Positions 6,515-32,359 are shown, counted from the stretch's first letter. The stretch is DNA of 32,650 nt from a bacterium (GCA_046759165.1 JBHIBS010000019.1:1-32650), one strand, 5' to 3'. Translations and numbers: made by a program. Notes: generated from the letters alone by a model not told the origin.

Positions 6515-7549
6515 TCACTGAGATTCTTCGGGAATCTCTGGAGGTTTCTCTTCTCCTACGCTTAGTAATTTCTCTCCCAGCCTATCGAGTTTCTTCTCAG
6601 CTTCCTCGTATTTCGCTCTACTACTGGAAAGGTGTTTACCCAATACCTCAAAATCTTCCCTGAACTTTACTAAGTCTCCATGGAGGCGAGTCAGATTACC
6701 CAAAATCTCTTCCGCAGCTTTCTCAATTCTCAATCCTTTAAGTCCCAGTACTAAAGCCTGCAAATAGGCGTAGAAGCTGTTGGGCGAGACTGGAATCACT
6801 TTCTTTGAAAGCGCGTAAGAACAGATCCCTTTCCCTTCACAGAGAGGCTCATCCTTAATTATCGTCTCATAATATACATTTTCAGCGGGAATGTAGAGGA
6901 GTGCAAAATCGAAAGTATCCTCATCCGGTAAAATGTACTTATCCGAAACATCGTCAATATGTTTTTTGACATCTCTGACAAACTCCTTGCGACTTCTCTG
7001 CCTTTCCTCTTCACCACTGCTTTCTAACATTTTTTTGAAGTTCTCCAGTGGAAACTTGGAATCTATTGGAACAAGCCGATTCCCCAGGCGAATAACCGCG
7101 TCTACAATTTCGCCATTTTTGAATTTGTGCTTGAGGCTGAAATGTTCTTGTGGCAGAATCTGGCCTAAGAGATTTGCCAGCAGGAATTCACCCACTTCAC
7201 CACGAAAGGTAGGTGCCCTCAGAAGCTCCTGAAGGCTGGATATATCTTTCCCTACTTCATAAATTCTCCTGTTCGCCTCCTCCATTCTCCCCAGGCTCTC
7301 CTTTACAGAAGTGACAACCTCGGTAGTATTGACGAGCCTTTCACTTACTTGGCTGGTAACAGCGTTTAACTGGTTTGTCAGCTGAGTCGTTAGGTTTGCT
7401 ATCCGCTGTTCCATTACCAGAAGCGCCTGCTCACTTCCTCTCCTTTCCTCCAAATCCCTAATTCTCCTTCTTGTATTCATGGCCATCCAGAGTATAAGAA
7501 TAACAAGAACCCCCACTGCTCCAAGTATCGCCCATATGCTCAATCCCAT
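6515..7549 (-). CDS. rmuC: DNA recombination protein RmuC
   Basis: N-terminal TM and coiled coil, RGEVGE, VPIDSKFPLE, KYILP.E.TFDFALLYIPAE, VSPNS. Confidence 0.93.
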   Translation of the reverse strand: MGLSIWAILGAVGVLVILILWMAMNTRRRIRDLEERRGSEQALLVMEQRIANLTTQLTNQLNAVTSQVSERLVNTTEVVTSVKESLGRMEEANRRIYEVGKDISSLQELLRAPTFRGEVGEFLLANLLGQILPQEHFSLKHKFKNGEIVDAVIRLGNRLVPIDSKFPLENFKKMLESSGEEERQRSRKEFVRDVKKHIDDVSDKYILPDEDTFDFALLYIPAENVYYETIIKDEPLCEGKGICSYALSKKVIPVSPNSFYAYLQALVLGLKGLRIEKAAEEILGNLTRLHGDLVKFREDFEVLGKHLSSSRAKYEEAEKKLDRLGEKLLSVGEEKPPEIPEESQ

Positions 7550-7567
7550 TAATTTCCCTCCATTTAA

Positions 7568-7592
7568 AGCAGAACCACCGCTCTGCCACTAC
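7568..7592 (-). repeat. GTAG-type REP-like hairpin
   Basis: Minus strand GTAGTG-GCAGAGC-GGTG-GTTCTGC-T. Confidence 0.5.
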
Positions 7593-7593
7593 T

Positions 7594-7783
7594 GAGATTA
7601 AAAGATAGTTTGTGAATAGTTTTTGGAATTCCAGCTAAAAAACGAAGACGACTTATTCTCCTTCAAGCAAAAATTTGTTCGACCCCGATTTATCGGGGGA
7701 GTTTATTTTTGCTCCCTGCAGAGTCCGAAGTTTTTCTGGCGTGAAGAAATTCCTCAGTGATGAACAAACTATCTTTTGATTTC
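7594..7783 (+). ncRNA. Structured ~180-nt repeat element, full copy 1 (candidate ncRNA or non-autonomous mobile element)
   Basis: Terminal IR AAAAGATAGTTTGT/ACAAACTATCTTTT; nested stems GGAATT/AATTCC, AAAAAC/GTTTTT, GAC/GTC, AGCAAAAAT/ATTTTTGCT; cap hairpin CCCCGATTTATCGGGG. Colinear with the copies at 19321 and 21418. Confidence 0.7.
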
Positions 7784-7798
7784 TATTTTTTTCTTTTT

Positions 7799-7828
7799 AT
7801 TATACCAAATTTAAAAACCCGAAAACAA
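7799..7828 (-). promoter_or_regulatory. Putative sigma70 promoter for rmuC (TTGTTT-N18-TATAAT with extended TG)
   Basis: Perfect -10 preceded by TGn in an AT-rich intergenic region. Confidence 0.5.
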
Positions 7829-7835
7829 GGATGAT

Positions 7836-8987
7836 TTACATTGACCTCTTGTATATCTCCTCTATCTCTTTGGTGATGGGACGCCGTGGGTTCAAAGTGA
7901 GGAGACGCTCATTCTTGCTCATGGTCTCGGCAAAACCAGCCAGAGACTCCTCCTTCACTCCTATCTCTTTCAAGCCCCTGGGTATTCCTATATTTTCTGA
8001 AAGCTCTCTTACTGCCACTACACTCAGGTGAGCGGCCTCCTTTTCGGATAGACCTTCTACCCTCTTTCCCATAGCCTCAGCAATGTTTCTATACTTGATA
8101 GGGTTGGCTACGAGATTGAACTCCATTACTTCAGGCATAAGTAGAGCATTTGCCAACCCATGGGGAGCCCCATAGAAGAGGCTAATTGAATAACCCATTC
8201 CATGAATTATTCCAGCGCCTGCGGAACTAATTACCATTCCAGCGAGCATGGACGCAAAGAGCATCTTCTCTCTAATTTTTAGGTTCTCTGGTTGAGAAAT
8301 TGCTCCTGGCAAAGCCTCAGCAATTAGGGCTATCGATTTCAAGGCCAAGATATCACCAACCGGATTTGCCTGCGTCGAGACATATCCTTCAATCGCATGA
8401 CTTAGAGCATCCATTCCTGTATTGGCGGTAAGAGAGGCTGGCATACTCAGGGTTAACAGTGGATCGAGTATGGCAAGTTTAGGGCTAATAAGGGGGCTAC
8501 TGATTATCTGTTTTAACATTTTCTTTCGGTCGGTAATAACTGCATATTTTGTAACTTCACTTCCTGTTCCGGCCGTCGTGGGGATAGCGAAAATTGGAAG
8601 GGCGGGTTCCTTTACCTTATCCGCCCCGAAATAGTTAATAAGTTCACCCTTGTTTGTCATAAGTAGCGCAATTCCCTTTGCTGCATCCATCGGGCTTCCT
8701 CCGCCAAGACCAATCACTACATCCACTCCACATTCTTTAGCAACTTTTGCTCCTTCCTCCACTGTCTCGATACTCGGGTCAGGCTCCACCTTATTAAACA
8801 CTTCTACCCGAAGATTATTTGAAGTGAGCGAATTTATCACCTCCTCCAGGCTACCCGACTTCTTTGACGAGGACTTCCCTGTAACTATCAAAGCCCTCTG
8901 TCCAAATTTCCCAACTTCTTCGCCCACTCTTTTCAAAGTTCCCTCGCCAAAGATAATTCTAGTTGGAGAATAGAAAATGTATTCCAT
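7836..8987 (-). CDS. Iron-containing alcohol dehydrogenase
   Basis: GLGGGSPMDAAK, IPTTAGTGSEVT, GMDALSHAIE, His ligands in HGMG...PHGLANA. Confidence 0.93.
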   Translation of the reverse strand: MEYIFYSPTRIIFGEGTLKRVGEEVGKFGQRALIVTGKSSSKKSGSLEEVINSLTSNNLRVEVFNKVEPDPSIETVEEGAKVAKECGVDVVIGLGGGSPMDAAKGIALLMTNKGELINYFGADKVKEPALPIFAIPTTAGTGSEVTKYAVITDRKKMLKQIISSPLISPKLAILDPLLTLSMPASLTANTGMDALSHAIEGYVSTQANPVGDILALKSIALIAEALPGAISQPENLKIREKMLFASMLAGMVISSAGAGIIHGMGYSISLFYGAPHGLANALLMPEVMEFNLVANPIKYRNIAEAMGKRVEGLSEKEAAHLSVVAVRELSENIGIPRGLKEIGVKEESLAGFAETMSKNERLLTLNPRRPITKEIEEIYKRSM

Positions 8988-8989
8988 GG

Positions 8990-11900
8990 TTACCTCCTTG
9001 TGTACCCACCGCTGAGGAGTCCCCCCTCACCCCATTCCTCTCCCCTATGGGGAGAGGGAGATTTTGCCAATATTTCACAAACTGATTTATAATCACAAAA
9101 TTCACACCTTTTTGGCATAACGACCGGTTCAAAATCTTCTTCCCGAATTTTCTTTATAATTGTCTTTATTTTCTTTTCTAAATCACGCTCCATATCTTTC
9201 CCAATTTCTATGGTGACGAGTTCATTATGGCGCAGCCAGTATAAGCTCAATTTTTCTACTGGATTGTATCCAAGAATCTTCTCAGCCCCCCATTTGTAAA
9301 GCTGAATTGGCAAAACATAGGGCTGTTCATTCTTCTGGCGATTGGTCTTATAATCGATAATATGGTATCCATTCCCGGAAGTTCTATCAATTCGGTCGAT
9401 TATTCCCCTGATTTCAGAGTCTTCAATGAAAAGATGGAATGGCTGTTCTACTCTAACGATGTTACCAATTTGGCTCTCTGAATTGTCCAAAAATCTTAGA
9501 AGAATTGATTTAGCTTCTCTCTCATAAATATTTCGAATCTCCCTGTCAGTGATTCCATGAGCTTTGGCCAGTGAACGGAATTTACTTATCAATTCCGATT
9601 CTCTCCATTCTTCTCTCTCTTTTCTTGATAGAATGTATTCTTCCAGGGTCTTGTGAATTACTGTGCCGAATGTTGACTCTTCAATCACCTCTTCTTCTTT
9701 CTCTCTTTCCAATCCGGGGTCTGGAGGAAGATTGAATAGGTAGAGATATTTGTACCTTAATGGACACTGGTCAAAAGTGGCAAGCTGGGTAACTGTAAAA
9801 GAAGGAGGGGAAATTTCGTGGGAGGGAATCGACTCATAGGATGAAAATACAACCCTTCTTATCTCTTCCAGCGGCAGGGTCTCGATCTCTTTCTCTCTTT
9901 GGGCCGCGGGATAAATTCCTTTCTCCCAGACTTTCCTCTCCTGTAAAAACTTCTCCCTCCTATCTTCAATTAAGGAAGAGAACTTCTCTTTTACTTTCCA
10001 CTTCTCATCAAGAAAATAGGACATGAATGGACTCACCTTTTCTTGGGTGCTCTTGGTGCCGGAAATTATCAACTTCTCTCGAGGTCTGGTCAGACTAACA
10101 TAGAGAAGCCTCTTCTCTTCCATGTCGATGCCTCTTCTCCTTCCCCTCATCTCTTCTTTGGTAGATATGATGGAATCTTCATCATAAGCATAAAATGGTA
10201 AAGTTCCTCCTTTGAAAGGAAAAGCCTTATCCTTGACATTGGCTAAAAAAACGATGGGAAATTCCAATCCCTTTGCCTGGTGAATGCTCATTAGTCGTAC
10301 AGCGTTCTCCTCCCCAGGTTTAGCTTCACTCTCCACCACTCCCTGTTGAGTAACCTCATTCACATAGGCAATGAAATCTTCCAGTGTGGAGAAGATGTTT
10401 CTCTCCTCAAATTCTTGGATGAGGTTGAAAAACTTTTTAATATTCGCCAGGGTTCTCCTCCTTTCGGTAGGAGGCAAACTCTGGGCATAATGGAAATAGT
10501 TGCTCTGGCTAATCACTTTATATACCAGTTCACCTAAACTGTATCTACTCTTCTCTACGAAGAATCTCTCCAAAAGGGCTCTGCAATTCCTGATGGCCTT
10601 CTTATCTTCTTCTCCAATATCAAGACCATCCAACTTCCCCAGGGCATCGTAAAGGGGATAACGCTTCTTCACCATCTTCTCTTTGTCTTCAATTTCTCGC
10701 TCAGCAAAGACCGTGGCCAGAGAAGATAGACTGGAATTCTTAATTCTGAAAATGGGCGACCTCAGTAACCTTATGAGGGAGATGTCATCAAAGGGATTAT
10801 TGATTGTGCTCAAAAGTGCCACCAAATCCCTTATTTCTGGCCTTTCATAGTAACCTGTTCCGCCAGTAGTAATAAAAGGAATCCCGTGCCGCCTCAGAGC
10901 CTCCTCATATATTCCCACTGGAGTCTTAATTCCTCTCAAGAGTATCGATATATCCTTGAGCTCTAAACTCCTTCCCCAATCTTCTTTTCTGATCGGATTC
11001 TTTAACCGGTAGCCTCTCAGGAGCTGGAGAATTCTCTGGACAATAAATTCAGCCTCCTCTTCCTGATATTCTGCCAAAAATATCTCAACAGCACATCCCT
11101 CTCCTTCCTCTTCTGAACTTATGGGCTCATAACCAGGAATTTCCTTATCCAGAGCCTTATTGACCACTTTAAGAATCTGATTAAAGGAGCGGAAATTCTT
11201 AGTCAAAGAAAGGCTCAATTCAGATTCCTTGCCAAAATCTTCAATATTCTCAGGCTTAGCTCCTCGAAAGGCATAGATGGACTGTTTGATATCGCCCACC
11301 ACGAAGTAGTTGTGAGAGAACTGGCGTAAGAGTTTATCCTGAAGGGATGTGGTGTCCTGGTACTCATCGACCAGGACATATCTGAACTGCTTCTGGTATT
11401 TCTCCTTTATCTTTGCATTATTCTTGAGAAGATGCAAAGTCTCTAGGAGAATCCCGGAAAAATCGAAGTAGTGGCGCCTTTTAAGTTCCTCCTCATAAGA
11501 AGCATAGATCTTGGCAATCAGGCGGGTTAAATTTCTTTTCTCCTCACCCTTTGCTTTTGGAATCTGACGCAGAAATTCTGAAGGACATATTGCCTCATTT
11601 CGTAGCTCTTGAACATATTCATAGATCCTACTCAAGAAATCATCCAGCCACTGGTCGATAGTGACCCGGGGCAACTTTCCTTCCTCAAGCAGCGCTTTCC
11701 CCACCTTACAGAAAAGGATCTTAGCCTCTATCTCATTAATGACTCTGAAATTTGGCTCCAAACCTACTTCCAGAGCATTCTCTCTAAGAAGCCGTGTACA
11801 AAAGGAATCGATGGTGCTGATGTAAGCTCTCCTTGCCAGAACTTCCCTGGGAAGAGACATATTCTCCAACTCTCCTTCCAACCTCTCCCTCATCTCTCCA

Positions 11901-12103
11901 GCAGCCTTATTGGTGAATGTTACTGCCAGAATGCTCTCTATAGCCTCCTCAGGAGATACTCCCTTCTCCACGAGATTAGAAAATATGTTTAAGTACCTGT
12001 TTACCAGAACCGATGTCTTCCCTGTCCCGGCTCCTGCCTTCAGGCAGACAGTACCTTCAACCTCAACAACCGCCCTCTTCTGTTCTAAAGTTAAATCTCT
12101 CAT
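8990..12103 (-). CDS. UvrD-like helicase fused to a RecB-type nuclease (AddA/AdnB-like motor subunit)
   Basis: AGAGTGKT, VTFTNKAA, LVDEYQDT, GDIKQSIYAFRGA, NFRS, MSIHQAKGLEF; nuclease GIIDRID..IIDYKT with CP...CxxCxxxxxC. Confidence 0.9.
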   Translation of the reverse strand: MRDLTLEQKRAVVEVEGTVCLKAGAGTGKTSVLVNRYLNIFSNLVEKGVSPEEAIESILAVTFTNKAAGEMRERLEGELENMSLPREVLARRAYISTIDSFCTRLLRENALEVGLEPNFRVINEIEAKILFCKVGKALLEEGKLPRVTIDQWLDDFLSRIYEYVQELRNEAICPSEFLRQIPKAKGEEKRNLTRLIAKIYASYEEELKRRHYFDFSGILLETLHLLKNNAKIKEKYQKQFRYVLVDEYQDTTSLQDKLLRQFSHNYFVVGDIKQSIYAFRGAKPENIEDFGKESELSLSLTKNFRSFNQILKVVNKALDKEIPGYEPISSEEEGEGCAVEIFLAEYQEEEAEFIVQRILQLLRGYRLKNPIRKEDWGRSLELKDISILLRGIKTPVGIYEEALRRHGIPFITTGGTGYYERPEIRDLVALLSTINNPFDDISLIRLLRSPIFRIKNSSLSSLATVFAEREIEDKEKMVKKRYPLYDALGKLDGLDIGEEDKKAIRNCRALLERFFVEKSRYSLGELVYKVISQSNYFHYAQSLPPTERRRTLANIKKFFNLIQEFEERNIFSTLEDFIAYVNEVTQQGVVESEAKPGEENAVRLMSIHQAKGLEFPIVFLANVKDKAFPFKGGTLPFYAYDEDSIISTKEEMRGRRRGIDMEEKRLLYVSLTRPREKLIISGTKSTQEKVSPFMSYFLDEKWKVKEKFSSLIEDRREKFLQERKVWEKGIYPAAQREKEIETLPLEEIRRVVFSSYESIPSHEISPPSFTVTQLATFDQCPLRYKYLYLFNLPPDPGLEREKEEEVIEESTFGTVIHKTLEEYILSRKEREEWRESELISKFRSLAKAHGITDREIRNIYEREAKSILLRFLDNSESQIGNIVRVEQPFHLFIEDSEIRGIIDRIDRTSGNGYHIIDYKTNRQKNEQPYVLPIQLYKWGAEKILGYNPVEKLSLYWLRHNELVTIEIGKDMERDLEKKIKTIIKKIREEDFEPVVMPKRCEFCDYKSVCEILAKSPSPHRGEEWGEGGLLSGGYTRR
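9021..9060. repeat. CCCCTCACCC...CCTCTCCCC-TAT-GGGGAGAGG palindromic repeat inside the helicase 3' end
   Basis: 9-bp perfect hairpin at 9037-9057; translated as SPSPHRGEEWGEGG after the last conserved Cys. Confidence 0.65.
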
Positions 12104-15096
12104 TCTCCTGTTATCTTCTTATCACAAAGGAAATTGAAATCGCAATTCCAGCAGTTCCTTGGCCTCTGCGGATAGTATCCCTGGAGAATCCCCTTTGCCT
12201 TTTCCCTGAGATGCTTTAGTGCCTCCTCAAGGGACCCTTTGGTGGAAAGGACCACTCCCCCAGCAGAATATTGCTTACCCACCTCGACCGTTGCCTTAAT
12301 ATTGGCTTTAGAGTTCTGGAGGTCTTTACGGAGCCAGTAGATGGAGAGCCTCTCTACTGGCCTCCTCAAGTCTTCTCTGGCACCAAAAAAATAGATGGGT
12401 AACTGGAAACTTTCTCCCTCGCTCATTTTCCGACAGAGGCGGAACTCCATAAACGGATTCTTACTGGTCTTATAATCGATCACTTCCTCGACTCCTCCCT
12501 TGAGGCGATCCAGACGGTCTATTCGTCCAGAAATAGTCAACCTATCCATCTGCCAGGTGAATTCTCTTTCCTTCTCCTCAATGGAGAAACTCTCTCTTTT
12601 CCTCTCCTTCTCAAGATACCTCAGAAGAATTTCGGAAGCTAATCTCTGATAGACTTCTTTCTCAAACAGAGTGGAGAAACTCCCCCCTTCCTCGGAGAAG
12701 ACCTTCTCAACCTCCTTCTGCATATCCCTTTCTGCATGAGAAGAATATAGAGCATCTCTGCTATTGTATTTCTCATGAAAGGATGCAAGAATCCTGTGGA
12801 GGAGTCTTCCAAAAATTAAAGCAGGTCTCGGCTTAATCCAGATCTTTAGGAGGAAGGAGAAGAAGAACTTTGCCGGACATTCGCTGTATGACTCAAGCTT
12901 ATACGAAGAGAATGGATAATTAGTAGAAATCTTCACTCTATCCCAGAGAGTCTCCTGGTCGAACTCTCCCCTAATTCTCATTATCTCATTATATTTCTCT
13001 CTATCAATCTCTACAAGCAGGCCTTCTAAATCCTTATCTCCAGTTGTGAGCCAGAAGTTAACTAAATCCTCCCGCGTTAAAATTTCATCCTTCGCCTCAG
13101 GGCTCAGAACCGATGGCTTATCAAGAAATTCTATCCCTCTATTCCTGCATTTCTCAAGTAGTTCGTCTTCCCTTTCTGCCTCAACGAATTTCAAGACCAA
13201 AGAAGAGAGAAGTGAATCGCGATTAGACTCATAGGTTTTTCCATAAGTTAAATATAGCCTCTCCCTTGCTCTACTTATAGCTAAATTGAAGATCCTCTCC
13301 TCTTCTTTCAGATGTTCGGAAAGTTCGGGAAGGGGCTTCAGTCCCAATTTCTTCTTCTCTCGAAGGCCTAAAAGGGAAGATTCGGGTAAATCTCGCGGAA
13401 ACTTTCCTTCCACAAGGCCAGTTACGAAGACTACCGGGAAGAAGTTCCCGCCTGCCCTTTGCACAGTCATAATCTGGACGCTATCCTCTTGGGGAACAAA
13501 TGTAATTGCTTCCTCCCGACCGTAAGAAGCAAGCATCTCGTCAAGATAGCTCATGAAATCAAAAAAAGACAAATTGTTTTCGATCTTCTGGAACTTCTTC
13601 ACCACTTCCAGAAAATAGCTCAGATTCTGAGCCAACCTCTTGCTCTTCGTCCCTGCTTTCAGATAACCGAACCTCAAGAAAACTCTGTAAATAAGCCTTT
13701 CCAGGGATTCCTCTCTTGCCTCTTTCTCCATCTCCCCTAATGCTACCAGAAATTTCCGAAGGGAGGAGACAGTATCCCCCTTCAAACCACGTCCGGGATA
13801 GCTTACGCCAGACTCAGCCTTCTCGGGAAAGTCCTGGGGTAATTCCTTCACCACCATTCCTATGGCAGCTAAGAAAGGCAATCCTTTCCTTTCACTATAG
13901 GTGAGGAGCCTCTGAATATCAACAGGGTCGATCTTGAATTGCGGGGCTGAGAGAGCTCTCAGGAGATAGATGTTCATCTCTTCTGCTCCCCATAGGCACT
14001 TTAAAATGGAGATAATCTGGACAATTTCTGGCTGCTTGAAAAATGCTATGCCTCCCATTACTGTGTAATCGATATCGTAAATTTTCAGGGCATCTTCTAG
14101 GTTCTTTATCTCTCTAGAGACACCGCGGCAGAGGATAGCGATGTCGTGATAATGGTAGCCCTGGCGAGTCAAACCGTAGACCTTTCGGGCAATGAACAGA
14201 GCCTCCTCGCTTCCACTGCCACATTTCACTAAAGCTATCTCGGGGGAGCAGGTGGAAACTTCGGAAAGGGAAATTATGTGTGGCTCAAACTCAGTTAAGA
14301 ATTTCCTGTCCGCATCGTGGGGCAGAGCTCCACGAAAACGAAAGACGCTCTCTCCTTCATTACCTGAAAAAAGTACCTCCTGTTTCTCCGAGGCTAAAAG
14401 AGAGAAGAGTTCGTACTGATTCAAATCGATGTTCTGAAAGTCGTCGAGGAGAATGTGGCTAAATCTTTCCCTATAATTTTTAAGAATATCCGGATGACTT
14501 TTAAAAAGTCGAATGGTTTTCAAAACCAGGTCTCTAAAATCTAACCGGTTCTCTTTGCGTAGGTAATCCTGGTAGTCTCTGTAAATTCTTTTCAAATCTC
14601 CGAATTTCCCATAGGCGGGCAGGCTAACTTGGGAATTAAGTTTCAAAAGGTCAATGAAGTCGACCACCTCATCTAAGAAACCAGAAGCGTGCTTGACACT
14701 CCGATAGTAGTTCAACTTCAAACCTTTGAGAATTTTACTCAGAACTAACCTTTCCTCCAAACCATCGAGGACCTGAAAGTTGGGGTAGATTCCGGGAACC
14801 CTACTATAATTTTGCCGGAGAACTCTCTTGCAGAAAGCGGTGAAGCTATTGACCCAGAACTCTCCATATCCCGGCTGAAGATGGGGTCTCAAGGTCCCCA
14901 CCATTTCCTCTTGATCGGTAAAGACAAGTATCTTTTCAGGTAGAGCAATTCCAGAAGATATGAGATATTCGATTCTTCTCTTTAAAACTTCGGTCTTGCC
15001 CGACCCGGCTGGACCTAAAAGAAGAAGCGGTCTACCTCGATGAGTCACCGCCTCCTTTTGCTCTCTATTCAAGCCTTTTAGAATATCCACCTTCAT
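12100..15096 (-). CDS. Degenerate UvrD-like helicase fused to a RecB-type nuclease (AddB/AdnA-like subunit)
   Basis: GPAGSGKT is present, but motif II is LLDDFQN and there is no NY/FRS motif. Nuclease GRIDRLD..VIDYKT with CP...CWNCDFNFLC. ATGA overlap with its partner gene. Confidence 0.85.
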   Translation of the reverse strand: MKVDILKGLNREQKEAVTHRGRPLLLLGPAGSGKTEVLKRRIEYLISSGIALPEKILVFTDQEEMVGTLRPHLQPGYGEFWVNSFTAFCKRVLRQNYSRVPGIYPNFQVLDGLEERLVLSKILKGLKLNYYRSVKHASGFLDEVVDFIDLLKLNSQVSLPAYGKFGDLKRIYRDYQDYLRKENRLDFRDLVLKTIRLFKSHPDILKNYRERFSHILLDDFQNIDLNQYELFSLLASEKQEVLFSGNEGESVFRFRGALPHDADRKFLTEFEPHIISLSEVSTCSPEIALVKCGSGSEEALFIARKVYGLTRQGYHYHDIAILCRGVSREIKNLEDALKIYDIDYTVMGGIAFFKQPEIVQIISILKCLWGAEEMNIYLLRALSAPQFKIDPVDIQRLLTYSERKGLPFLAAIGMVVKELPQDFPEKAESGVSYPGRGLKGDTVSSLRKFLVALGEMEKEAREESLERLIYRVFLRFGYLKAGTKSKRLAQNLSYFLEVVKKFQKIENNLSFFDFMSYLDEMLASYGREEAITFVPQEDSVQIMTVQRAGGNFFPVVFVTGLVEGKFPRDLPESSLLGLREKKKLGLKPLPELSEHLKEEERIFNLAISRARERLYLTYGKTYESNRDSLLSSLVLKFVEAEREDELLEKCRNRGIEFLDKPSVLSPEAKDEILTREDLVNFWLTTGDKDLEGLLVEIDREKYNEIMRIRGEFDQETLWDRVKISTNYPFSSYKLESYSECPAKFFFSFLLKIWIKPRPALIFGRLLHRILASFHEKYNSRDALYSSHAERDMQKEVEKVFSEEGGSFSTLFEKEVYQRLASEILLRYLEKERKRESFSIEEKEREFTWQMDRLTISGRIDRLDRLKGGVEEVIDYKTSKNPFMEFRLCRKMSEGESFQLPIYFFGAREDLRRPVERLSIYWLRKDLQNSKANIKATVEVGKQYSAGGVVLSTKGSLEEALKHLREKAKGILQGYYPQRPRNCWNCDFNFLCDKKITGE

Positions 15097-15160
15097 CCCT
15101 AATTAACCGACCACGGGTTTATTTGCGGGTAGCATAGCCCTTTACGACCCTAATTTTTAC

Positions 15161-15292
15161 GGGGACAAGCCACTACACCACCTCCATTAATGCAAAGCTC
15201 CGCTCTACCACAATTCAAAACCTTGCACAATTTGAAATCGTACCTACAAAATTTCGAATTCACCCCATTGTAGGCACAAATTCAATTTGTGC
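15161..15292. repeat. Cluster of GTAG-type REP-like sequences including an inverted doublet
   Basis: 15225-15249 and 15268-15292 are inverted copies (TTGTAGGYACRAWTTCAAWTTGTGC, 4 differences). Further units ending in CTAC at 15161-15176 and 15192-15208. Confidence 0.6.
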
Positions 15293-15293
15293 A

Positions 15294-15335
15294 ATTTATG
15301 AACAGCTTCTGGAATTTTAACCAAAAAAGGAGGAC
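15294..15335 (+). repeat. Left-arm fragment of the ~180-nt element
   Basis: TGAACAGCTTCTGGAATTTTAACCAAAAAAGGAGGAC aligns with TGAAAAGCTTTTGGAATTTTAGGCAAAAAACAAGGAC of copy 2. Confidence 0.7.
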
Positions 15336-15850
15336 ATCTCCTCTTCGAAAGCTTCAAAAACCGGCCTATCGTAAAGGGCAAAAATAATCAACTTAACTTT
15401 TATATCCTTCCATTTTCTTAAGAAATCAAACGTCTCTCCGAGCATAATCTTAGCGCACTCTTTGAGGGGAAATCTGCCCACACCCGTTCCAAAAGCTGGA
15501 AATGCTAAAGAACCGACTCCCAGTTCTTCTGCCTTCTTAAGAGTATTCAGAGTGGCCTTACCTATTATCTGAGCATTCGTTACCAAATTCTGTTCCATCA
15601 CTGCTGCGTGGATGATATATTTTGCTGGCAAACTCCCTGCACCAGTAGCCACCACCTCTCCTACTGGTTTTGGTCCCTGAGCCACTGCCTCCCTTTCAAT
15701 AACCTTCCCTCCCTTCCTCTTGATTGCACCAGCCACTCCTCCTCCCATCCAGAACTTATTGTTAGCCGCATTGACAATAGCGTCAACTTTCAGAGTGGTA
15801 ATATCTCCTTGAAAAAGCTTTATCCTGGTATTTTTTAGCAAAACCTCCAT
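15317..15850 (-). CDS. Macro domain protein (ADP-ribose binding/hydrolase, YmdB-like)
   Basis: GDIT..VDAIVNAAN..GGGVAGAI, IIHA, AFPAFGTGV. Confidence 0.93.
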   Translation of the reverse strand: MEVLLKNTRIKLFQGDITTLKVDAIVNAANNKFWMGGGVAGAIKRKGGKVIEREAVAQGPKPVGEVVATGAGSLPAKYIIHAAVMEQNLVTNAQIIGKATLNTLKKAEELGVGSLAFPAFGTGVGRFPLKECAKIMLGETFDFLRKWKDIKVKLIIFALYDRPVFEAFEEEMSSFFG

Positions 15851-15851
15851 T

Positions 15852-17006
15852 CTATTCTTTTTCCCTTCCCATTTTTTCTTTTAAAGTCGTCAGGAGATTC
15901 TCAAAAGATTTTTCGAATGCATCCACTCCTTCTCTCTGAAGGGTCTCACAGACCTCTTCTAAATTGACCCCAGCTCTTTCCATCCGAGAAAGAACGTCTT
16001 CAACCATGCCGAAATTCTCTTCCAGAGATAATCTCGGCTTTCCATGGTCTCTAAAGGCATCCAGCGTTACCTGAGGAATGGTATTCACCGTATGGGGACC
16101 AATCAATTCTTCCACATATTTCACATCACTATAAGCAGGATTCTTAGTGGAGGTGCTTGCCCAGAGCGGTCTCTGGACTCTGGCTCCTCTTTTTGCCAGG
16201 TCTTTGAACTTGCCTCGAGAAAATATCTGTTTAAACTTTTGATAAACCTTCTTGGAATTGGCTATTGCCGCTTTTCCCATAAGCTCCTCTAAATTTCTCT
16301 TCTTTTGAAGACCTTTCTCCCACTCTATCAGTGAACTAATCTGCCTATCCACCAGTGTGTCTATCCTGCTCACAAATAGACTGGCAACCGAGACCACTCT
16401 CCTCAAATCTCCTCCCTTTCTGGAAAACTCTTCCAGTCCCTTTATGTATGCCGTGGCAACGTTTTCGTAATGGGACAAAGAGAATATGAGAGTAGTATTT
16501 ATGTTAATGCCTTTCGATATCAGACGCTCGATTGCCACAGCCCCTTCTTCTGTTGCCGGGACTTTTATCAAAATATTTTCCCTTCCTATTCTCTCAAACA
16601 ATTCTTGCGCCTCACCGAGAGTCTTTTCAATATCGTATGCGTATTTTGGAGGAACTTCGATACTCACATATCCATCTTTTCCCTCTGTCTCTTTATATAT
16701 TCTGTAAAGAATATCTGCCGCCAGAGTTACATCCTTTATTGTCAAACTACTATACACCTCTTCGGCAGTCTTGTTTTTTTGAGCCAGCTCTTCAATTTCA
16801 GAATCATATTCACTACTTTGAGTAATTGCTTTTTCAAATATAGTCGGATTGGATGTAACTCCACAGATGCCATCTTGTTCAACCATTTTTTCCAGCTTTC
16901 CCGAGGTGAGAATGGACCTCTCAATATTATCATACCAGATGCTCTGTCCAAAATTCTTAATCTGATAAACTGGATTCTTTCCCATTTCCCTTTTCCCAAA
17001 ACTCAC
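15852..17006 (-). CDS. tal: Transaldolase (long type); alternative start at 16985
   Basis: GQSIWYD, GVTSNPTIF, ILIKVPAT (catalytic Lys), FVSRID, RPLWASTSTKNP. Confidence 0.95.
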   Translation of the reverse strand: MSFGKREMGKNPVYQIKNFGQSIWYDNIERSILTSGKLEKMVEQDGICGVTSNPTIFEKAITQSSEYDSEIEELAQKNKTAEEVYSSLTIKDVTLAADILYRIYKETEGKDGYVSIEVPPKYAYDIEKTLGEAQELFERIGRENILIKVPATEEGAVAIERLISKGININTTLIFSLSHYENVATAYIKGLEEFSRKGGDLRRVVSVASLFVSRIDTLVDRQISSLIEWEKGLQKKRNLEELMGKAAIANSKKVYQKFKQIFSRGKFKDLAKRGARVQRPLWASTSTKNPAYSDVKYVEELIGPHTVNTIPQVTLDAFRDHGKPRLSLEENFGMVEDVLSRMERAGVNLEEVCETLQREGVDAFEKSFENLLTTLKEKMGREKE

Positions 17007-18229
17007 AAAAGGCTCATCTGCTCTGGCTCTGCTCTCTTTTCCTCTTCAAATATCTTTACTTTCCCATACACCCCATCATATCCTGGGGAAACCTTGACTT
17101 TCCTTTCCCTTACCCTGGCGATACCTTCGGCGATTTTGGAATGGATTTTATAAATTTCATCGAAAGGAACTTTTAGCATAATTTTGAATTCACTGCCAAA
17201 TTTTTCAATCAGGTAGTGGTATAACTTATCCACTTCTGTCGACTTGGAGGTCTTTCCAATCGCCTCGCCGATTACTTCTTTTAAGAGAACAAGACTTGTA
17301 AAAGGAATTGCGCCCTGAGGTTTGAAGCCGATTTCCCTATCGGCGAGTTCGTCCACTCGATGCATAACTCCTATAGTGAGAGGTTTGCCACACCGCGGGC
17401 AAATGTTATTATAACTCTTTGTCTCTTTGGGAGAAAGACACACGTTACAATTCCTGTGACCGTCATAATGGTACTTCCCTTGCTGAGGGAAGAACTCTAT
17501 AGTACCCAAGAATTTATCCTTTTCCTTATTCTTGATTGCAGAAATTATTTCTCCATAATCAATTTTGCAATCAAAAATATTGGCTTCCCTTCCCAAACTG
17601 GCAGGAGAATGAGCGTCACTATTGGAGATTAAGGCAAACCTGTCGAGATTGCCCAGGGCCCAGTTCATTTCAGGGTCGCTGGACAATCCTGTCTCCAGAG
17701 CATAGATTTGCGAAGTCAATTCTCCAAAGCATTCTTTTATGTCGTCAAACCCGGAATTTGCCCCAAAGAGCGAAAACCAGGGAGTCCAGATATGCGCCGG
17801 CACAACAAAACATTCACTGGACGCTTCCAGCACTATCTTCGTTAACTCCTTTGCCGAAATTCCCAAGATAGGTCTTCCATCAGAGTACAAGTTACCGATT
17901 CTTGAGAGTTCCTTATTCAACTTGTGGACTATCTCGAAACTGGGAACAAAAACGAGAATATGAATTTTTCTTACACTTCCGCTCTGAGAATAGATACAAC
18001 TTATCTCGCCAGTCAGGAAAAAATGGACGCCACCATACTCATAAACACCATAGGTCACTGGCTTAAGGCAATCTTCAAGTTCATCCAGCCAGTGGGGATG
18101 AGTAAAGTCCCCTGTTCCTAAAATATCAATTCCCTTAACCTTAGCATACCGGCTTATCTCTCGAACCCTCATCTCGCCCGAGGTAGCCCTTGAATATCGA
18201 GAGTGAATATGAAAATCAGCGATCAACAT
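17003..18229 (-). CDS. Endonuclease Q family (PHP domain + zinc finger)
   Basis: ADFHIHSRYSRATS, GTGDFTHP, PAHIWTPWFS, ETGLSSD, SNSDAHS, CxxC...CPRCG, PGYDGVYG. Confidence 0.9.
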   Translation of the reverse strand: MLIADFHIHSRYSRATSGEMRVREISRYAKVKGIDILGTGDFTHPHWLDELEDCLKPVTYGVYEYGGVHFFLTGEISCIYSQSGSVRKIHILVFVPSFEIVHKLNKELSRIGNLYSDGRPILGISAKELTKIVLEASSECFVVPAHIWTPWFSLFGANSGFDDIKECFGELTSQIYALETGLSSDPEMNWALGNLDRFALISNSDAHSPASLGREANIFDCKIDYGEIISAIKNKEKDKFLGTIEFFPQQGKYHYDGHRNCNVCLSPKETKSYNNICPRCGKPLTIGVMHRVDELADREIGFKPQGAIPFTSLVLLKEVIGEAIGKTSKSTEVDKLYHYLIEKFGSEFKIMLKVPFDEIYKIHSKIAEGIARVRERKVKVSPGYDGVYGKVKIFEEEKRAEPEQMSLL

Positions 18230-18596
18230 TTTTCTTCCTAACTATCAAAAAAAGCATCAACCCTATCCCTAACCCGTCTATCAGAATGTCGTAAATCGAC
18301 CCTTGTCTGGTGGGAACAAAACTCTGATGGATTTCGTCAGATATTCCATAAAGTAGGGAAAGCGCCCCGGACCACGCATAAGTTTTTGACAGATTAATCT
18401 TAATTGAGTGGAAAATCGCCCTCCAGATAAGAAAGGCGAGTATTCCGTATTCAGTAATGTGGGCAATTTTTCTGAGGATTATATCCCAGGTTCCCCAGGG
18501 CGTTGCAAGATTCGGAAGGCTGGAGAGGTAGAAAATGGTACCACACCACAAACCCACTGGTAGCCACAGTCTCAAAAACGGAAGAATTTTCCTCAT
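18216..18596 (-). CDS. VanZ-family membrane protein
   Basis: RKIAHITEYGILA, YGISDEIHQSFVPTR, DILID. Confidence 0.9.
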   Translation of the reverse strand: MRKILPFLRLWLPVGLWCGTIFYLSSLPNLATPWGTWDIILRKIAHITEYGILAFLIWRAIFHSIKINLSKTYAWSGALSLLYGISDEIHQSFVPTRQGSIYDILIDGLGIGLMLFLIVRKKNVDR

Positions 18597-18625
18597 CTCT
18601 CTTTGCCTTGAACATCAACAATTAC

Positions 18626-18820
18626 TCACTTGTAGCATTCAATAAATCTTTCCAAAGACCTGTCGTAAGTCCTCTCCACTTTGAGAGGAAAAAAACATGC
18701 TGGCAGTTCTCTCGACCTCCAGTGATATCTTATACACTCGCAACAAATCCCTTTTCTGGAACAAGGCTCATAGGTACAGTTGCAATTCTTCCGATTTACC
18801 TCTTGGTTGCATTCTCTCAT
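18626..18820 (-). CDS. Small Cys-rich protein (DUF6485-like)
   Basis: CNCTYEPCSRKGICCECIRYH...LPACFF...ERTYDRS; start at MRECNQ with an RBS-like AAGGAAG. Confidence 0.75.
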   Translation of the reverse strand: MRECNQEVNRKNCNCTYEPCSRKGICCECIRYHWRSRELPACFFPLKVERTYDRSLERFIECYK

Positions 18821-18855
18821 TTGTACTTCCTTTATGAGATCCAATATCTGTTATC

Positions 18856-18897
18856 GAAAAATAGTTTGTGAAGAGCTTCTGGAATTTTAGCCAAGAA
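18856..18897 (+). repeat. Left-arm fragment of the ~180-nt element
   Basis: AAAATAGTTTGTGAAGAGCTTCTGGAATTTTAGCCAAGAA matches the left arms of copies 1-3; it ends at the stop codon of the upstream gene. Confidence 0.75.
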
Positions 18898-19191
18898 TTA
18901 AAATCCAATTTTTTTAGACGGCTCGCCAGCTGCTTTTATCGCTCCAAATTTCTGTTCATACTTTTTAATATTCTCTTGTAGGGCAAGGAGGAACCTCTTG
19001 GTATGGCCAGGGCTTGAGATTATTCTCGCCCTCACTTTCGCTTTCGGCTCCTGAGGCTGAACGTAAATGAAATCCATTGTAAACTCAGTCTCTCTATGTC
19101 TTATAAAGGCCAAATTCACATATGCCCCCTGAGCCATGGCATCGTCCATTTCGATTCGAATTTGTACCTGTTTCTCTTGTTCTTCGGGCAT
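18898..19191 (-). CDS. DUF3467-like protein
   Basis: GAYVNLAFIRH..TEFTMDF...AKVRARIISSPGHTKRFL.AL..NI.KYE..FG.I; start at MPEEQ with an AAGGAGG RBS. Confidence 0.8.
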   Translation of the reverse strand: MPEEQEKQVQIRIEMDDAMAQGAYVNLAFIRHRETEFTMDFIYVQPQEPKAKVRARIISSPGHTKRFLLALQENIKKYEQKFGAIKAAGEPSKKIGF

Positions 19192-19320
19192 AACTTTAAC
19201 CTCCTTGACTTGTCCTCCCCGCTTAGTATAAACGTGGCGACCTTTCCGATATTTCTTCGGCTCAACCATCTTTATAATGCCATGCGAAGCTTACGCCTCA
19301 CTCCTCCTTATTCATGTTAC

Positions 19321-19502
19321 ATTCAAAAGATAGTCTGTGAAAAGCTTTTGGAATTTTAGGCAAAAAACAAGGACGAATTCTTCTCTTCTAAGCAAATCAC
19401 TGTTTGACGAGCGAAGCGAGGAGTTTTGATTTGCGCCATGCTGAGTCCGAAGTTTTTTGCCGTAAAGAAATTCCTAAGTAATGAACAGACTATCTTTTGA
19501 AT
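19321..19502 (+). ncRNA. Structured ~180-nt repeat element, full copy 2
   Basis: Perfect 18-bp terminal IR ATTCAAAAGATAGTCTGT; stems GGAATTT/AAATTCC, GGCAAAAAAC/GTTTTTTGCC, GGAC/GTCC, GCAAATCA/TGATTTGC; cap GAGCGAAGCGAG. Confidence 0.7.
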
Positions 19503-19513
19503 CTAACCAAGAA

Positions 19514-19882
19514 TCAATACTTATAACCTTTGTCAAAGGCCTCCTTGAAATCGTACCCGTCCTTGAAATCCTCAATACTATCTTCTTCTGTCTTAGCCAA
19601 AAGTCCAGCATCAACCATATTGAAAACTATATTGCCGAAATCTTCTGTCCTTCTAACTCCCCAATTCACAAAAACTGTGCGAGTCATCAGCCCGAAACGT
19701 TCCAGACCGTATTCCCTGATGCCCTCAAGCAGTTCCCGACCACTAAGGTGTCTGGGCCTATCGAATTTACTTTGCGTGTAATTTAAAGCTTCCATAACGA
19801 AATCGTAAGCCTCCACTTTATAGCAAGGGTTCTTAGCCACAATTTCTTCGACAACCTTCAAGAAATTCATTCTATTATTCAT
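19514..19882 (-). CDS. Conserved hypothetical protein (Minf_1886-like)
   Basis: Y..EAYDFVMEAL...RHLSGRELLEGIR...FG.M...V...WGV..TEDFGNIVFNMV..GLL.K.EEDS.EDF. Confidence 0.75.
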   Translation of the reverse strand: MNNRMNFLKVVEEIVAKNPCYKVEAYDFVMEALNYTQSKFDRPRHLSGRELLEGIREYGLERFGLMTRTVFVNWGVRRTEDFGNIVFNMVDAGLLAKTEEDSIEDFKDGYDFKEAFDKGYKY

Positions 19883-19884
19883 CG

Positions 19885-20796
19885 TTAAACTTCGCTCAGG
19901 CAAACCCTCCTGAAATTACAGGAGTTGCAGGTTTCCTGGTTGATTGTCTTGGCAAAATTATCTTTGGAAGCTATATTCTGAACAGGATCTACCAGTAACG
20001 TCTTCATTTCCTTGATATTCTTTCTGATATATCCCTTAATCTCTTCTATCTCTCTGGCATTTAACCTGTTTGTGATACCCCTCTTATTGTACAAATTGTA
20101 CTCAATCGTTCTAACTTCTTCCGAACCCACATTCCAGTGGTCAATTGCAAATAGAGTGTAACAACCAAGTTGAACGTCGCTTCCGGCACGTTCAGATTTA
20201 CCGGTTTTCCAGTCTATTATGGTAATCCCGCCATTTCGATCTCTGTAAGCGAAATCTAACTTGACATTGATTTTGCTATCTTCGAAGAGAAAACCCTGAA
20301 ACTCTTCTATGGGCAACCAGAGTGAAAAGTCGATATTCTTAACCATATCAAAAATATCTGAACTGTAAAAATTCTGAATGCATGTCTCTACGTGCTTCCT
20401 GAGGTCTTTCCATCTCTCTTCTTCCACTTTTACATCATATTCGTGCTCAAATAAGGCACAGCTTTTAGGATCTTGCCAGTACCTTTTGTTCTTCGACGAT
20501 TCGAAGTCGTACCGCATCTGCCCCCTGGTTAATTCGATGAGGCGATTCATCCAAGGTACTCTGCCAGACTTCGTCTCCTCCAGGACATTTTTGATAGAGT
20601 TATGTACTATCTCTCCTGCCCACATAAATCTGTTCTTCAGTTTCCCGAGAATATATATCTGCCTGACTTCGTCAGGAGCATCAAATTCCCAACCACCCCA
20701 GTGTCCGTAATAGGTGTAATAGTATTTCCTGTGACATTCCCTGAAAATATCATTTCTCGATTTTGACCAGGAGAACTCATTCTTTAATTTTCCCAT
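19885..20796 (-). CDS. Stand-alone PD-(D/E)XK nuclease (RecB/Cas4-like, 4 Cys)
   Basis: FSWS...CHRKYY, GEIVH, VKLDFAY, IIDWKTG, QLGCY, CNSCNFRRVC; start at MGKLKN with a GGAGG RBS. Confidence 0.85.
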   Translation of the reverse strand: MGKLKNEFSWSKSRNDIFRECHRKYYYTYYGHWGGWEFDAPDEVRQIYILGKLKNRFMWAGEIVHNSIKNVLEETKSGRVPWMNRLIELTRGQMRYDFESSKNKRYWQDPKSCALFEHEYDVKVEEERWKDLRKHVETCIQNFYSSDIFDMVKNIDFSLWLPIEEFQGFLFEDSKINVKLDFAYRDRNGGITIIDWKTGKSERAGSDVQLGCYTLFAIDHWNVGSEEVRTIEYNLYNKRGITNRLNAREIEEIKGYIRKNIKEMKTLLVDPVQNIASKDNFAKTINQETCNSCNFRRVCLSEV

Positions 20797-20834
20797 TTTC
20801 CCTCCCATTGGTTGGTTTCCTGAAAGCAGCCAGC

Positions 20835-21404
20835 TTAAAATTCGACCCCGGGGATTTCAGCTTCTTCCTTTTCCACCACGAAATAAGTTCGCGACTCAGC
20901 CAGACCCCTCCTTTTAGCAAAGAACCGACCAAAGACTTCTCTAATGTGAGCATTAAAAGTCTTCACAGCCCGATTATACCTCACCCTGGCCACAGCAATT
21001 CTGTTTGTAGTTCCCGACAGTTCATCCATTAGCCTGAGGAAGGTCTGATTGGCTTTCAAGTCGGGATACCGCTCAACGATTGCCAGAAGACGGGCTAAAG
21101 CACCATCCAGTTCCTTGGCTGCCTTAAGCTTTTCCGCAACTGTTCTTGCTCCAGCAAGAGCTGAGCGCGCATCGGCTACGTGGGTAAATACTTCCCTCTC
21201 ATGCTTGACATACCTTTTAACTGTAGCCACCAGATCGGGAATTAATTCGCTTCTCCTCTTGAGCTGTGTATCAATCTGAGCCCAAGCCTCGCTCGCTTCT
21301 TCATCCATTCTCACCACGCGATTAAGGCCAGAAATGTACCAAGCAATCCCAACAAAAATCAAAAAGACAAAAATAGCCAGAAAAATCCATGCCTTTCTCA
21401 TCAT
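20835..21404 (-). CDS. lemA: LemA family protein
   Basis: N-terminal TM, AWAQIDTQLKRR..LIP.LV.TVK.Y..HE, ERYPDLKANQTF, NRIAVAR.RYN. Confidence 0.92.
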   Translation of the reverse strand: MMRKAWIFLAIFVFLIFVGIAWYISGLNRVVRMDEEASEAWAQIDTQLKRRSELIPDLVATVKRYVKHEREVFTHVADARSALAGARTVAEKLKAAKELDGALARLLAIVERYPDLKANQTFLRLMDELSGTTNRIAVARVRYNRAVKTFNAHIREVFGRFFAKRRGLAESRTYFVVEKEEAEIPGVEF

Positions 21405-21417
21405 TTCCTCCATTTTA

Positions 21418-21599
21418 AAGAAAAGTTGATTTTGAAGAGCATTGGAATTTTAGCGAGAAACGAGGCTAACAATAACACTTCCAAACAGAATTTTGGTTGA
21501 GCCCCGATTTATCGGGGCGAGTTTAATTCTGTGCCCTGCAGAAGCCGAAGTTTCCGGGCGGTAAAAAATTCCTCACCGATCGAAAAATCAACTTTTCTT
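21418..21599 (+). ncRNA. Structured ~180-nt repeat element, full copy 3 (most divergent)
   Basis: Perfect 16-bp terminal IR AAGAAAAGTTGATTTT; stems GGAATTTT/AAAATTCC, GAAAC/GTTTC, GGCT/AGCC, ACAGAATT/AATTCTGT; cap GCCCCGATTTATCGGGGC. Confidence 0.7.
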
Positions 21600-21879: not shown

Positions 21880-22704
21880 TTATCTTGAAGATTCCCCGGT
21901 AGGCAGATTTTGTGTGAGGCTCTTAAATCTTTCCCGATTTCTAATAAGTTCAGCTTCCTCTAACTCGACCTGTTCGAGGTAGAGCTGTGCCCTCTCGATT
22001 CTATCGGCTGTAGGCGGATGGGAGCGAAATAGAGTTTCAAATTTAGTTGGAGGTTTCTTCTCCATAGCTTTAAGTTTCTCAAAAAAGTCAACCATTGCCC
22101 TGGGGTCGTATCCGGCAGCAAGGGAATAGCGGACTCCAGAATTGTCAGCCTCAAACTCGTTCTTCCGGCTATATCCGAGAAGCATTAAGGAAAAAAAGAA
22201 ATCGGTATATTGCCTCAACTGGCTCAAATCTCTTTTAGTGAGTATTTCTCCAATGAGGACAATTGCCGAGTAACCAAATGCTTTTTCAAACCGTTTTGCA
22301 CCATGGCGATAGACAACGTGTCCAATCTCATGTCCCATCACCCCTGCCAGTTCAGCTTCATCATCCAGCTCCTTAAGAATTCCCCTGGTCACAAAAATGA
22401 ATCCTCCAGGAGCGGCAAAAGCGTTCACCATCGGAGTATCCAGGACAGTGAAGTAGTAAGCTATCTCCTTCCTCTCGCAAACATCAACCAATTTCTGTCC
22501 CACCTCATTTATATACTCATGTAACTCGGGGTCATCGTAAACACCAAACTCATTTACTACCTGTTGAGCAGTTTCTTTCCCCAGGGCTACTTCCTGCCTT
22601 GTAGAGAGTAATCTAATTTCCTTTTCCCCTGTAACTGGATGGACTGCACATCCTATCATGAACACAAAGGATAAAAGTAAGAGGATATTCAAAATTCTTC
22701 TCAT
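21880..22704 (-). CDS. M48-family zinc metalloprotease lipoprotein
   Basis: Lipobox MIGC, VNAFAAPGG, HEIGH, YSRKNEFEAD, SHP...DRI. Confidence 0.92.
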   Translation of the reverse strand: MRRILNILLLLSFVFMIGCAVHPVTGEKEIRLLSTRQEVALGKETAQQVVNEFGVYDDPELHEYINEVGQKLVDVCERKEIAYYFTVLDTPMVNAFAAPGGFIFVTRGILKELDDEAELAGVMGHEIGHVVYRHGAKRFEKAFGYSAIVLIGEILTKRDLSQLRQYTDFFFSLMLLGYSRKNEFEADNSGVRYSLAAGYDPRAMVDFFEKLKAMEKKPPTKFETLFRSHPPTADRIERAQLYLEQVELEEAELIRNRERFKSLTQNLPTGESSR

Positions 22705-32348: not shown

Positions 32349-32359
32349 TATTCAATAAA

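Follow-up and report, generated by a model that had tools for sequence, protein, structure and literature searches.

A repeated palindromic unit in the window and its genome

The window analysed here is a 32,650-nt stretch of bacterial DNA (GCA_046759165.1 JBHIBS010000019.1:1-32650), contig C19 of an assembly (G000) that comprises 1.885 Mb in 165 contigs with 41.9% G+C. Between its genes lie the members of a candidate new family of palindromic repeats, represented by three full copies of about 180 nt and three fragments (Table 1). An earlier note on this DNA had reported three look-alike intergenic copies with the same layout, and the present comparison bears this out with a slightly narrower unit. 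Indeed, pairwise blastn gives 77% identity between copies 1 and 2 over 180 nt (E 9e-33) and 77% identity between copies 1 and 3 over 116 nt (E 2e-15). Furthermore, contigs of related strains from four public DNA runs break with loose ends at 7598/7599 and at 7777-7781, so that the edges of the unit are marked independently of the models; one poorly supported contig skip, from 7563 to 7799 (side 26), was not used.

The unit is also dispersed over the rest of the genome, as had been proposed. An iterated nhmmer profile yields 84 matches, 31 of which span at least 165 of the 192 profile positions, and about 50 partial copies stand beside these near-full-length ones. A covariance model built on 27 genomic copies (R1) finds 55 matches at E<=0.01, two of them reverse-strand echoes, which leaves 53 loci. 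The size of the unit is 165-190 nt and no open reading frame (ORF) lies within it. One-arm fragments and internally deleted short forms are present both in this genome and in its relatives; with dozens of copies in a genome, the family has clearly multiplied, and it decays to such arm fragments and short forms. The three fragments of the window, the orientation of the copies against their flanking genes and a GTAG-headed hairpin at 7569-7592 had been missed by the earlier note.

A nested rod with conserved unpaired motifs

To describe the fold, 27 of the 31 full copies were aligned; the copies left out were C45:7296-7515 (a 36-nt insertion), C4:14368-14524 and C26:15858-16008 (internal deletions) and the divergent C17:20206-20381. 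From the aligned copies, RNAalifold predicts a single rod of 38 pairs, in which six to seven helices are nested in one another, the terminal stem P1 measures 14-16 bp and the apical hairpin varies, and 27 of the 38 pairs carry two-sided changes that keep the pairing. A rod is predicted for either strand. The previously described stems P1, GGAATT:AATTCC, GGAC:GTCC versus GGCT:AGCC, and GCAAAAAT:ATTTTTGC with its variants were all recovered, and the joining motifs TGAAnAG, TGTYYGA..GAGTTT and CCGAAGTTT, as well as the two interchangeable apical caps, were found again. The genome holds at least four subfamilies, which differ in P1, P2 (GGAATT/AATTCC or GCAATT/AATTGC), P4 (GAGGAC/GTCC or CCATCTC/GAGATGG) and P5 and have the unpaired motifs in common. 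For copy 2, the strand on which the unit is read here (the reading strand, plus in the window) has a predicted energy of -62.8 kcal/mol versus a shuffle mean of -37 (z -6.7, none of 200 shuffles as good), and the other strand one of -52.0 kcal/mol (z -6.2).

The comparison was then extended to three lineages with 55 sequences, namely 27 of the window family, 7 from the genome G011 and 21 from G020, a complete genome of 2.4 Mb. In this alignment, which was fitted to the model and is tilted toward its structure, 92.9% of cells pair versus 70.1% in shuffles, P1 is 97.5% paired and two-sided changes occur in 34 of the 38 pairs. The covariation score is 0.619 versus 0.212, with none of 500 shuffles as high, and sliding the partners lowers it to 0.08-0.15. 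Since many of the two-sided changes separate a few subfamilies, the independent events are fewer than the cell counts suggest. Collectively, the alignments and the modelled energies leave the predicted nested fold well supported, and its maintenance by compensatory change, claimed before, stands within the genome and across the lineages. The further claim, that selection acts on the single-stranded fold, is not established: the changes amount to few events, and hairpin-templated repair can preserve the symmetry of a palindromic DNA repeat that has no function as RNA.

The unpaired motifs ATTTTAG, TGTYTGA..GAGTTT and CGTTAARAAATT are kept across the lineages. The apical cap, on the other hand, is swappable, and one of its modules also leads a separate existence: small hairpins of the form (GTC)CCGATKNATCGG(GAC) stand alone in 41 intergenic places of G000 (for instance C3:4056, C41:3957 and C10:34383), and were also seen at element-free orthologous sites.

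Copies follow stop codons and face one way

Both neighbours lie on the strand opposite to the reading strand in 27 of the 31 full copies; the others comprise one reversed copy, two between convergent or divergent genes and one at a contig end. When only co-directional flanks are considered, 27 of 28 full copies, and 70 of 71 when all nhmmer matches are taken, face against their genes. The distance from the preceding stop codon to the element has a median of 11 nt (range -12 to 282) and that from the element to the next start a median of 70.5 nt, with the ORF end inside the element in several cases. Thus, insertion or survival of the element occurs almost only in the short spacer past a stop codon.

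In G000, 1386 of 1533 neighbouring pairs of long ORFs are co-directional, 88-100% of ORF bases in the long contigs fall on one strand, and a GC skew of about 0.15-0.2 tracks that strand. Because the genes are mostly co-directional and the skew follows them, transcription and replication are inseparable in this genome. The complete genome G020 separates them. Among 21 copies examined there, nine have both neighbours opposite, one has both in the same sense, nine lie between convergent genes, one lies between divergent genes and one lacks a flank, so that nine of the ten copies with co-directional flanks are oriented as in the window's genome. These nine switch strand five times along the chromosome, which exceeds what a single origin and terminus allow; orientation therefore follows the genes, and replication is ruled out as its cause.

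Since the element faces one way relative to genes, the host mRNA holds the reverse complement of the reading strand; for copy 1, for instance, the mRNA sense is the minus strand. The position after genes implies co-transcription with them. A telling case is found in the relative G003, where rplW and rplB are separated by a full element in the order rplD-rplW-element-rplB-rpsS (L026 1207-2527), the longest-ORF call of rplB beginning 2 nt past the element. Transcription in the mRNA sense must pass through a copy inside this spacer, and strong termination in that direction is excluded. Terminator activity was also considered as an explanation of the orientation and was dropped, as only one of three scanned copies fits: a pattern scan gave a terminator-like site on the antisense strand of copy 1 and none in copy 2 or in one G020 copy.

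The local context of the window copies agrees in strand with this arrangement. Copy 2 lies 15 nt past the stop codon of a Minf_1886-family gene (19514-19903, minus strand) and upstream of ORF 18898-19269 (minus), whose own stop codon adjoins the 5'-arm fragment. ORF 20835-21413 (minus) has copy 3 immediately upstream of its ribosome-binding site and start; the sole family match of this ORF, MamQ, is far under its cut-off (90.1 versus 250 bits). The 3'-arm fragment near the window end is overlapped by an R1 match at 32349-32474 (E 0.0011).

Table 1. Copies and fragments of the repeat in the window, the genes beside copy 1, and example loci of the deletion series in G020. R1, covariance model of 27 genomic copies.
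Feature	Position	Strand	Score
Full copy 1, subfamily A, cap CCCCGATTTATCGGGG	7599-7778	+	R1 189.6 bits
Full copy 2, subfamily A, cap GAGCGAAGCGAG	19324-19499	+	R1 175.1 bits
Full copy 3, subfamily C, diverged P1 AAGAAAAGTTGATTTT	21420-21597	+	R1 150.6 bits
Fragment, 5' arm only, model positions 5-49	18853-18897	+	nhmmer E 1.8e-08
Fragment, 3' arm only, model positions 125-188, near window end	32414-32476	+	nhmmer E 1.2e-09
Weak fragment, model positions 15-73, spacer region 15097-15316	15293-15348	+	nhmmer E 1.1e-06
Fe-alcohol-dehydrogenase-like gene, stop side of copy 1	7836-8987	-	
RmuC-like gene, start side of copy 1	6515-7549	-	
Deletion series, example locus (G020:C1)	1141254-1141280		
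Deletion series, example locus (G020:C1)	1040867-1040917		
Deletion series, example locus (G020:C1)	433343-433464		

Turnover at orthologous spacers

Presence/absence polymorphism between relatives, which the earlier note had set as a test of mobility, was found at orthologous sites. At the site of copy 2, G001 and G002 hold other variants, and in G004 and G005 the same genes are separated by 39 and 64 nt with a small hairpin (GCAGAGC..GCTCTGC) and no element. The orthologue of copy 3 is present in G001 with 93% identity. Between rplW and rplB, full elements occur in G003 and G007 and a 29-nt GC hairpin in G005; G006 and G008, whose flanks are 98% identical to those of G003, keep 25 nt from the beginning of the element, with unrelated hairpins behind them. 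A third site carries a full copy in G003, a 48-nt mini form reduced to P1 and the junction motifs within the same flanks in G007, and a different small hairpin in G004.

Shortening is also visible within a single genome. An additional palindrome, CTGTTGCAAA...TTTGCAACAG, encloses one subfamily of G020 and has a T run after it; with its A and T runs, this outer palindrome looks like a bidirectional terminator. The 22 loci of the subfamily on G020:C1 form a nested deletion series of 27, 51, 97, 122, about 212 and about 275 nt (examples in Table 1), and near-identical copies in G020 point to recent spread. Short direct repeats mark the deletion junctions inspected, namely those of the 122-nt G020 form and of the G007 mini form. 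The absence of target duplications noted before extends from the flanks to the orthologous sites. In the window's genome the copies are not bordered by direct repeats, although a duplicated TA or TTAA, being palindromic, would be indistinguishable from the stem end.

A second kind of hairpin often accompanies the element. Beside copy 1 and outside the 180-nt unit lies a REP-like repeat (7569-7592, minus strand), composed of GTAGTG and a hairpin GCAGAGC..TCTGC, and a regular-expression census of the pattern GTAG(Y)(R) plus hairpin GCAGAGCGAARCTCTGC counts 14 GTAG-headed copies in the genome. Such hairpins often lie just downstream of the element in the gene sense and recur in the 5' flanks of several copies; they also stand alone at the element-free copy 2 site of G004 and G005.

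A size difference of another type was observed around copy 3. Between the genes matching ORFs 20835-21413 and 21880-22704, which are separated by a spacer of 282 nt in the window, G004 has two extra ORFs (L039 3746-4950) of 270 aa, with a tail that is glycine-rich by eye, and 140 aa. G005 and G002 have a similar extra stretch of 1.5-1.6 kb.

Distribution

The element was found in 10 of 12 species genomes of the window's GTDB phylum, which is small and uncultivated: in all nine of family f1 (the window's genome counted), in the single genome of f3 and in neither of the two of f2 (98% and 76% complete). Beyond this phylum, one genome was sampled from each of 139 other bacterial families; only that of the family of G020 was positive and 138 were negative. 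In a sample of 121 genomes from the phylum of G020 (Fusobacteriota), 17 of 19 genomes of the Fusobacterium-like genus g15 and one of four of g40 carry the element, and 24 other genera gave none. The scan used strict filters and scored at most 22 candidates per genome; it may have missed weak relatives, and its match counts do not stand for copy numbers.

Exact matches among public records belong to metagenome-assembled genomes titled 'Clostridia bacterium' or 'bacterium'. Records of Fusobacterium animalis and F. vincentii contain stretches that share 80% identity with the G020 copies and bear no annotation; on this ground we infer that G020 is a Fusobacterium. The element also occurs in the Fusobacterium nucleatum group. 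Such patchy spread across phyla speaks for horizontal movement. As for possible carriers, the plasmid collection gave no match for the window-type element and the viral collection none for the window-type motif. The Fusobacterium-type had one viral match (L111 12122-12144), within the last 75 bases of a 12-kb IMG/VR contig, which may be host flank.

Search for a mobilising enzyme

As stated earlier for the window, no transposase, recombinase or reverse transcriptase was found among the 12 ORFs scanned of the 60 listed. In the rest of the genome, two proteins pass the cut-off of the NCBIfam family REP_Tyr_transpos (NF047646; 85.8 and 80.1 versus 80 bits), the RAYT (REP-associated tyrosine transposase) type of enzyme. 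Their genes (C4:49789-50478, L058 1462-2151, 229 aa; and on C40, L059 1198-1869, 223 aa) are located among housekeeping genes, with neither the element nor repeats at their flanks. RAYT matches occur in 9 of the 12 genomes of the window's phylum, with up to nine per relative; the element-positive G006 and G007, both incomplete genomes, show none. None of the 19 genomes of g15 has a match, and 17 of them carry the element; for this reason, RAYT was rejected as the common mobiliser.

The genome also has a single IS6-type gene (DDE_Tnp_IS240; G000:C18:32031-33137, L103 910-2016) near a contig end, whose 368-aa product is extended at the N-terminus by a cysteine-rich stretch. In the G020 subfamily, the outer palindrome CTGTTGCAAA resembles the ends of IS6-family elements, a resemblance left unsupported by the lack of a PF13610 gene in G020. 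Indeed, PF13610 is absent from G001, G003, G020 and G043, and no outward pair of CTGTTGCAAA ends brackets an ORF, so the IS6 link was abandoned. The Rpn-like family PF04754 has no match in the 19 genomes of g15.

Relation to known families

The earlier note had not recognised the family, and the Rfam search agrees. Only two tRNAs of the window reach the gathering threshold, nothing better than E 1.6 was obtained around copy 1, and the G020, G011 and F. vincentii copies gave nothing at E<=0.1 save 16S rRNA elsewhere in one locus. FuFi-1 and other motifs of the Weinberg 2017 set, considered from the accessible part of that report (PMC5737381), were set aside for want of an Rfam match. A streptococcal repeat of the BOX/RUP type was dropped after family scans of the window proteins, which returned a Minf_1886 family protein and sub-threshold BepA-like and MacB-like matches. 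The openly readable Fusobacterium literature, including the available portions of PMC11005410 and PMC11039985 and excluding subscription papers and supplements, contains no description of the repeat that we could find.

Comparison with established classes shows partial likeness to several of them. The unit is short (<300 bp), non-coding and dispersed in many copies, and its P1 arms constitute terminal inverted repeats that vary by subfamily, as in MITEs (miniature inverted-repeat transposable elements); membership in that class fails because no target-site duplication was seen and no insertion sequence (IS) partner, with a transposase and matching ends in the same host, was found. A REP is a GC-rich palindrome of 20-40 nt with a GTAG head and a REPIN consists of two inverted REP units. 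The element resembles them as an extragenic palindrome kept as a hairpin without target duplication, in a genome that has RAYT genes and GTAG hairpins, but its length is five times that of a REP and it has no GTAG head. As its arms also differ in their conserved loops, it is not a simple inverted REP pair, and RAYT does not co-occur with it in g15.

ERIC sequences (IRU) of enterobacteria are imperfect palindromes of 100-200 nt, intergenic and transcribed, which form a long mRNA hairpin, have size variants due to internal indels and are reported to affect transcripts in an orientation-dependent manner. The element shares with them the palindrome size, the transcribed intergenic site, the long hairpin and the size variants. 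It differs in having no sequence likeness (no Rfam or plasmid match), in its hosts from other phyla, in its near-absolute orientation bias and in termini and stems that vary by subfamily around constant loops. In the Bacillus cereus group, the mobile bcr1 repeat, about 155 nt long and with a TTTAT target duplication, is reported as transcribed, with a predicted RNA fold kept by compensatory changes; by this description it is similar in size and fold, and different in its duplication and its hosts. In the Correia elements (NEMIS) of Neisseria, which are said to be cut by RNase III, the terminal repeats are fixed at 26 bp, the target duplication is TA and both orientations occur, whereas the termini of the present element vary by subfamily, no duplication was seen and one orientation dominates. 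Paired terminal inverted repeats, internally deleted short forms, high copy number and co-transcription are, on the other hand, common to both (see also the accessible part of PMC3049150).

The same part of that source reports that small palindromic repeats of the ERIC and Correia families act on co-transcribed mRNA (PMC3049150). The pneumococcal BOX, RUP and SPRITE repeats described there are likewise small, interspersed, tightly folded and modular (boxB may be absent or repeated), with slow turnover, and are overrepresented in spacers of convergent genes and close to the 3' ends of genes. Their agreement with the coding strand is 61-63% in the text available (PMC3049150), in contrast to the 27 of 28 and 9 of 10 one-way copies with co-directional flanks found here, and there is no sequence likeness.

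Interpretation and alternatives

The element probably represents a new family of non-autonomous palindromic repeats of the ERIC/Correia/BOX/MITE-like kind, which are co-transcribed with host genes. The rod could be kept because it is needed for mobilisation, and/or because a compact self-folding insert would do the least harm in a transcript or terminator loop, and hairpin-templated repair would help to keep the arms matched. The orientation lock could arise from RNA-level selection on the co-transcribed strand, or from transcription-coupled, strand-specific insertion at gene 3' ends.

Several observations weigh against this proposal. The context counts are weakened by the crude longest-ORF gene calls on which they are based. 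No target duplication appears where filled and empty states were compared at three orthologous sites; another hairpin was replaced there, with no clean insertion. The genome has no 5'-ORF-3' arrangement, i.e. no autonomous partner with matching ends, and no multi-copy transposase ORFs were found in it; the sequence beside the IS6-type gene is unrelated to the element ends and shows no recognised inverted repeats. A purely selfish palindrome would not obviously need conserved unpaired motifs in lineages that otherwise share little. Finally, G-U pairs exceed A-C mismatches on the non-mRNA (reading) strand, by 81:25 over all pairs, 31:16 over the pairs predicted from both strands, and 66:20, 5:1 and 32:23 in the individual lineages. 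Co-transcription alone does not explain this excess, and neither does simple strand bias, since the sense strand of the genome is the G-rich one.

The same data can be read as a domesticated cis-acting module of the mRNA, such as an RNase III or RNase E site, a 3'-end stabiliser or an inter-cistron insulator, in which one strand has working loops. Location past stop codons, one-way orientation that tracks genes and not chromosome position in G020, the necessarily transcribed copy of the ribosomal-protein operon, loop motifs kept in three lineages and the activities reported for ERIC and Correia (PMC3049150, part available) are all compatible with such a role. However, orthologous spacers of sister species variously hold the element, the mini form or unrelated hairpins, so that no particular gene needs it; two genomes of the same order lack the element wholly, no RNA run was listed for window positions 6900-8400, and the G-U excess lies on the non-mRNA strand. 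We consider a domesticated module unlikely, with some arguments in its favour. That strand would instead be the functional one if the repeat were a multi-copy structured non-coding RNA (ncRNA) gene, antisense to its neighbours. Indeed, the reading strand gives the stronger fold for 21 of 27 copies (mean -59.6 versus -53.7 kcal/mol) and has the better consensus energy (-19.7 versus -13.5) besides the G-U excess, the conserved internal loops are purine-rich on it and copy 1 has a T-rich tail past its apical hairpin. This evidence for folding of the reading strand is modest, and the free-standing ncRNA proposed by the earlier note fits poorly: in 27 of 31 cases the reading strand is antisense to the genes on both sides, flanks vary from copy to copy without a conserved upstream sequence that could serve as a shared promoter, promoter-like scan matches stay at background level, and the terminator-like feature is confined to one of the three scanned copies. 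Many copies are also truncated, and a convergent RNA gene in the rplW-rplB spacer is hard to accept, which together make an ncRNA gene very unlikely.

Mobility of a folded single strand can be imagined in two forms. In the one, the element would be a REPIN-like single-stranded DNA (ssDNA) element moved by RAYT. Both RAYT proteins of the genome, the numerous matches in relatives, the GTAG-headed hairpins that often adjoin the element and the absence of target duplications, as expected of HUH enzymes, are in keeping with it; the g15 genomes that carry the element without RAYT, the two element-positive relatives without a match, the RAYT genes without a flanking element, the missing GTAG head and the unlike loops of the arms make it highly improbable. 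In the other, which is a specific form of the in-trans option of the earlier note and is quite unlikely, the element would be moved in trans as folded RNA or ssDNA by an enzyme common to the Fusobacterium nucleatum group and the window's phylum. Such an enzyme would read the constant loops (ATTTTAG / CGTTAARAAATT and TGTYTGA-cap-GAGTTT) and not the variable termini, with strand-specific, transcription-coupled integration into the hairpins of gene 3' ends. If true, this would account jointly for the absent target duplications, the diverging termini, the orientation lock, the nesting of palindromes and the G-U excess.

Significance and other observations

A further family of small palindromic repeats in bacteria is unsurprising in itself. 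What is unusual is that a rod fold and a few unpaired motifs are conserved while stems and termini change, that the orientation lock is far stronger than reported for pneumococcal repeats, that none of the usual signs of a transposase partner is present, and that the hosts are confined to a very small uncultivated phylum and the Fusobacterium nucleatum group. Through the second host these questions become testable, since the Fusobacterium nucleatum group is cultivable and genetically tractable; maps of transcription starts and 3' ends exist for Fusobacterium, according to the available text of PMC11005410. In addition, short-read assemblies break at the edges of the element, which fills dozens of spacers in a genome, so that masking or annotating it is advisable.

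Apart from the repeat, the window contains two adjacent large helicase-nuclease genes at 8990-15096 on the minus strand, coding for proteins of 1037 and 998 aa. The pair has UvrD/PcrA-like and AddA/AddB-like matches and Cas4-like nuclease ends, all below equivalog cut-offs.

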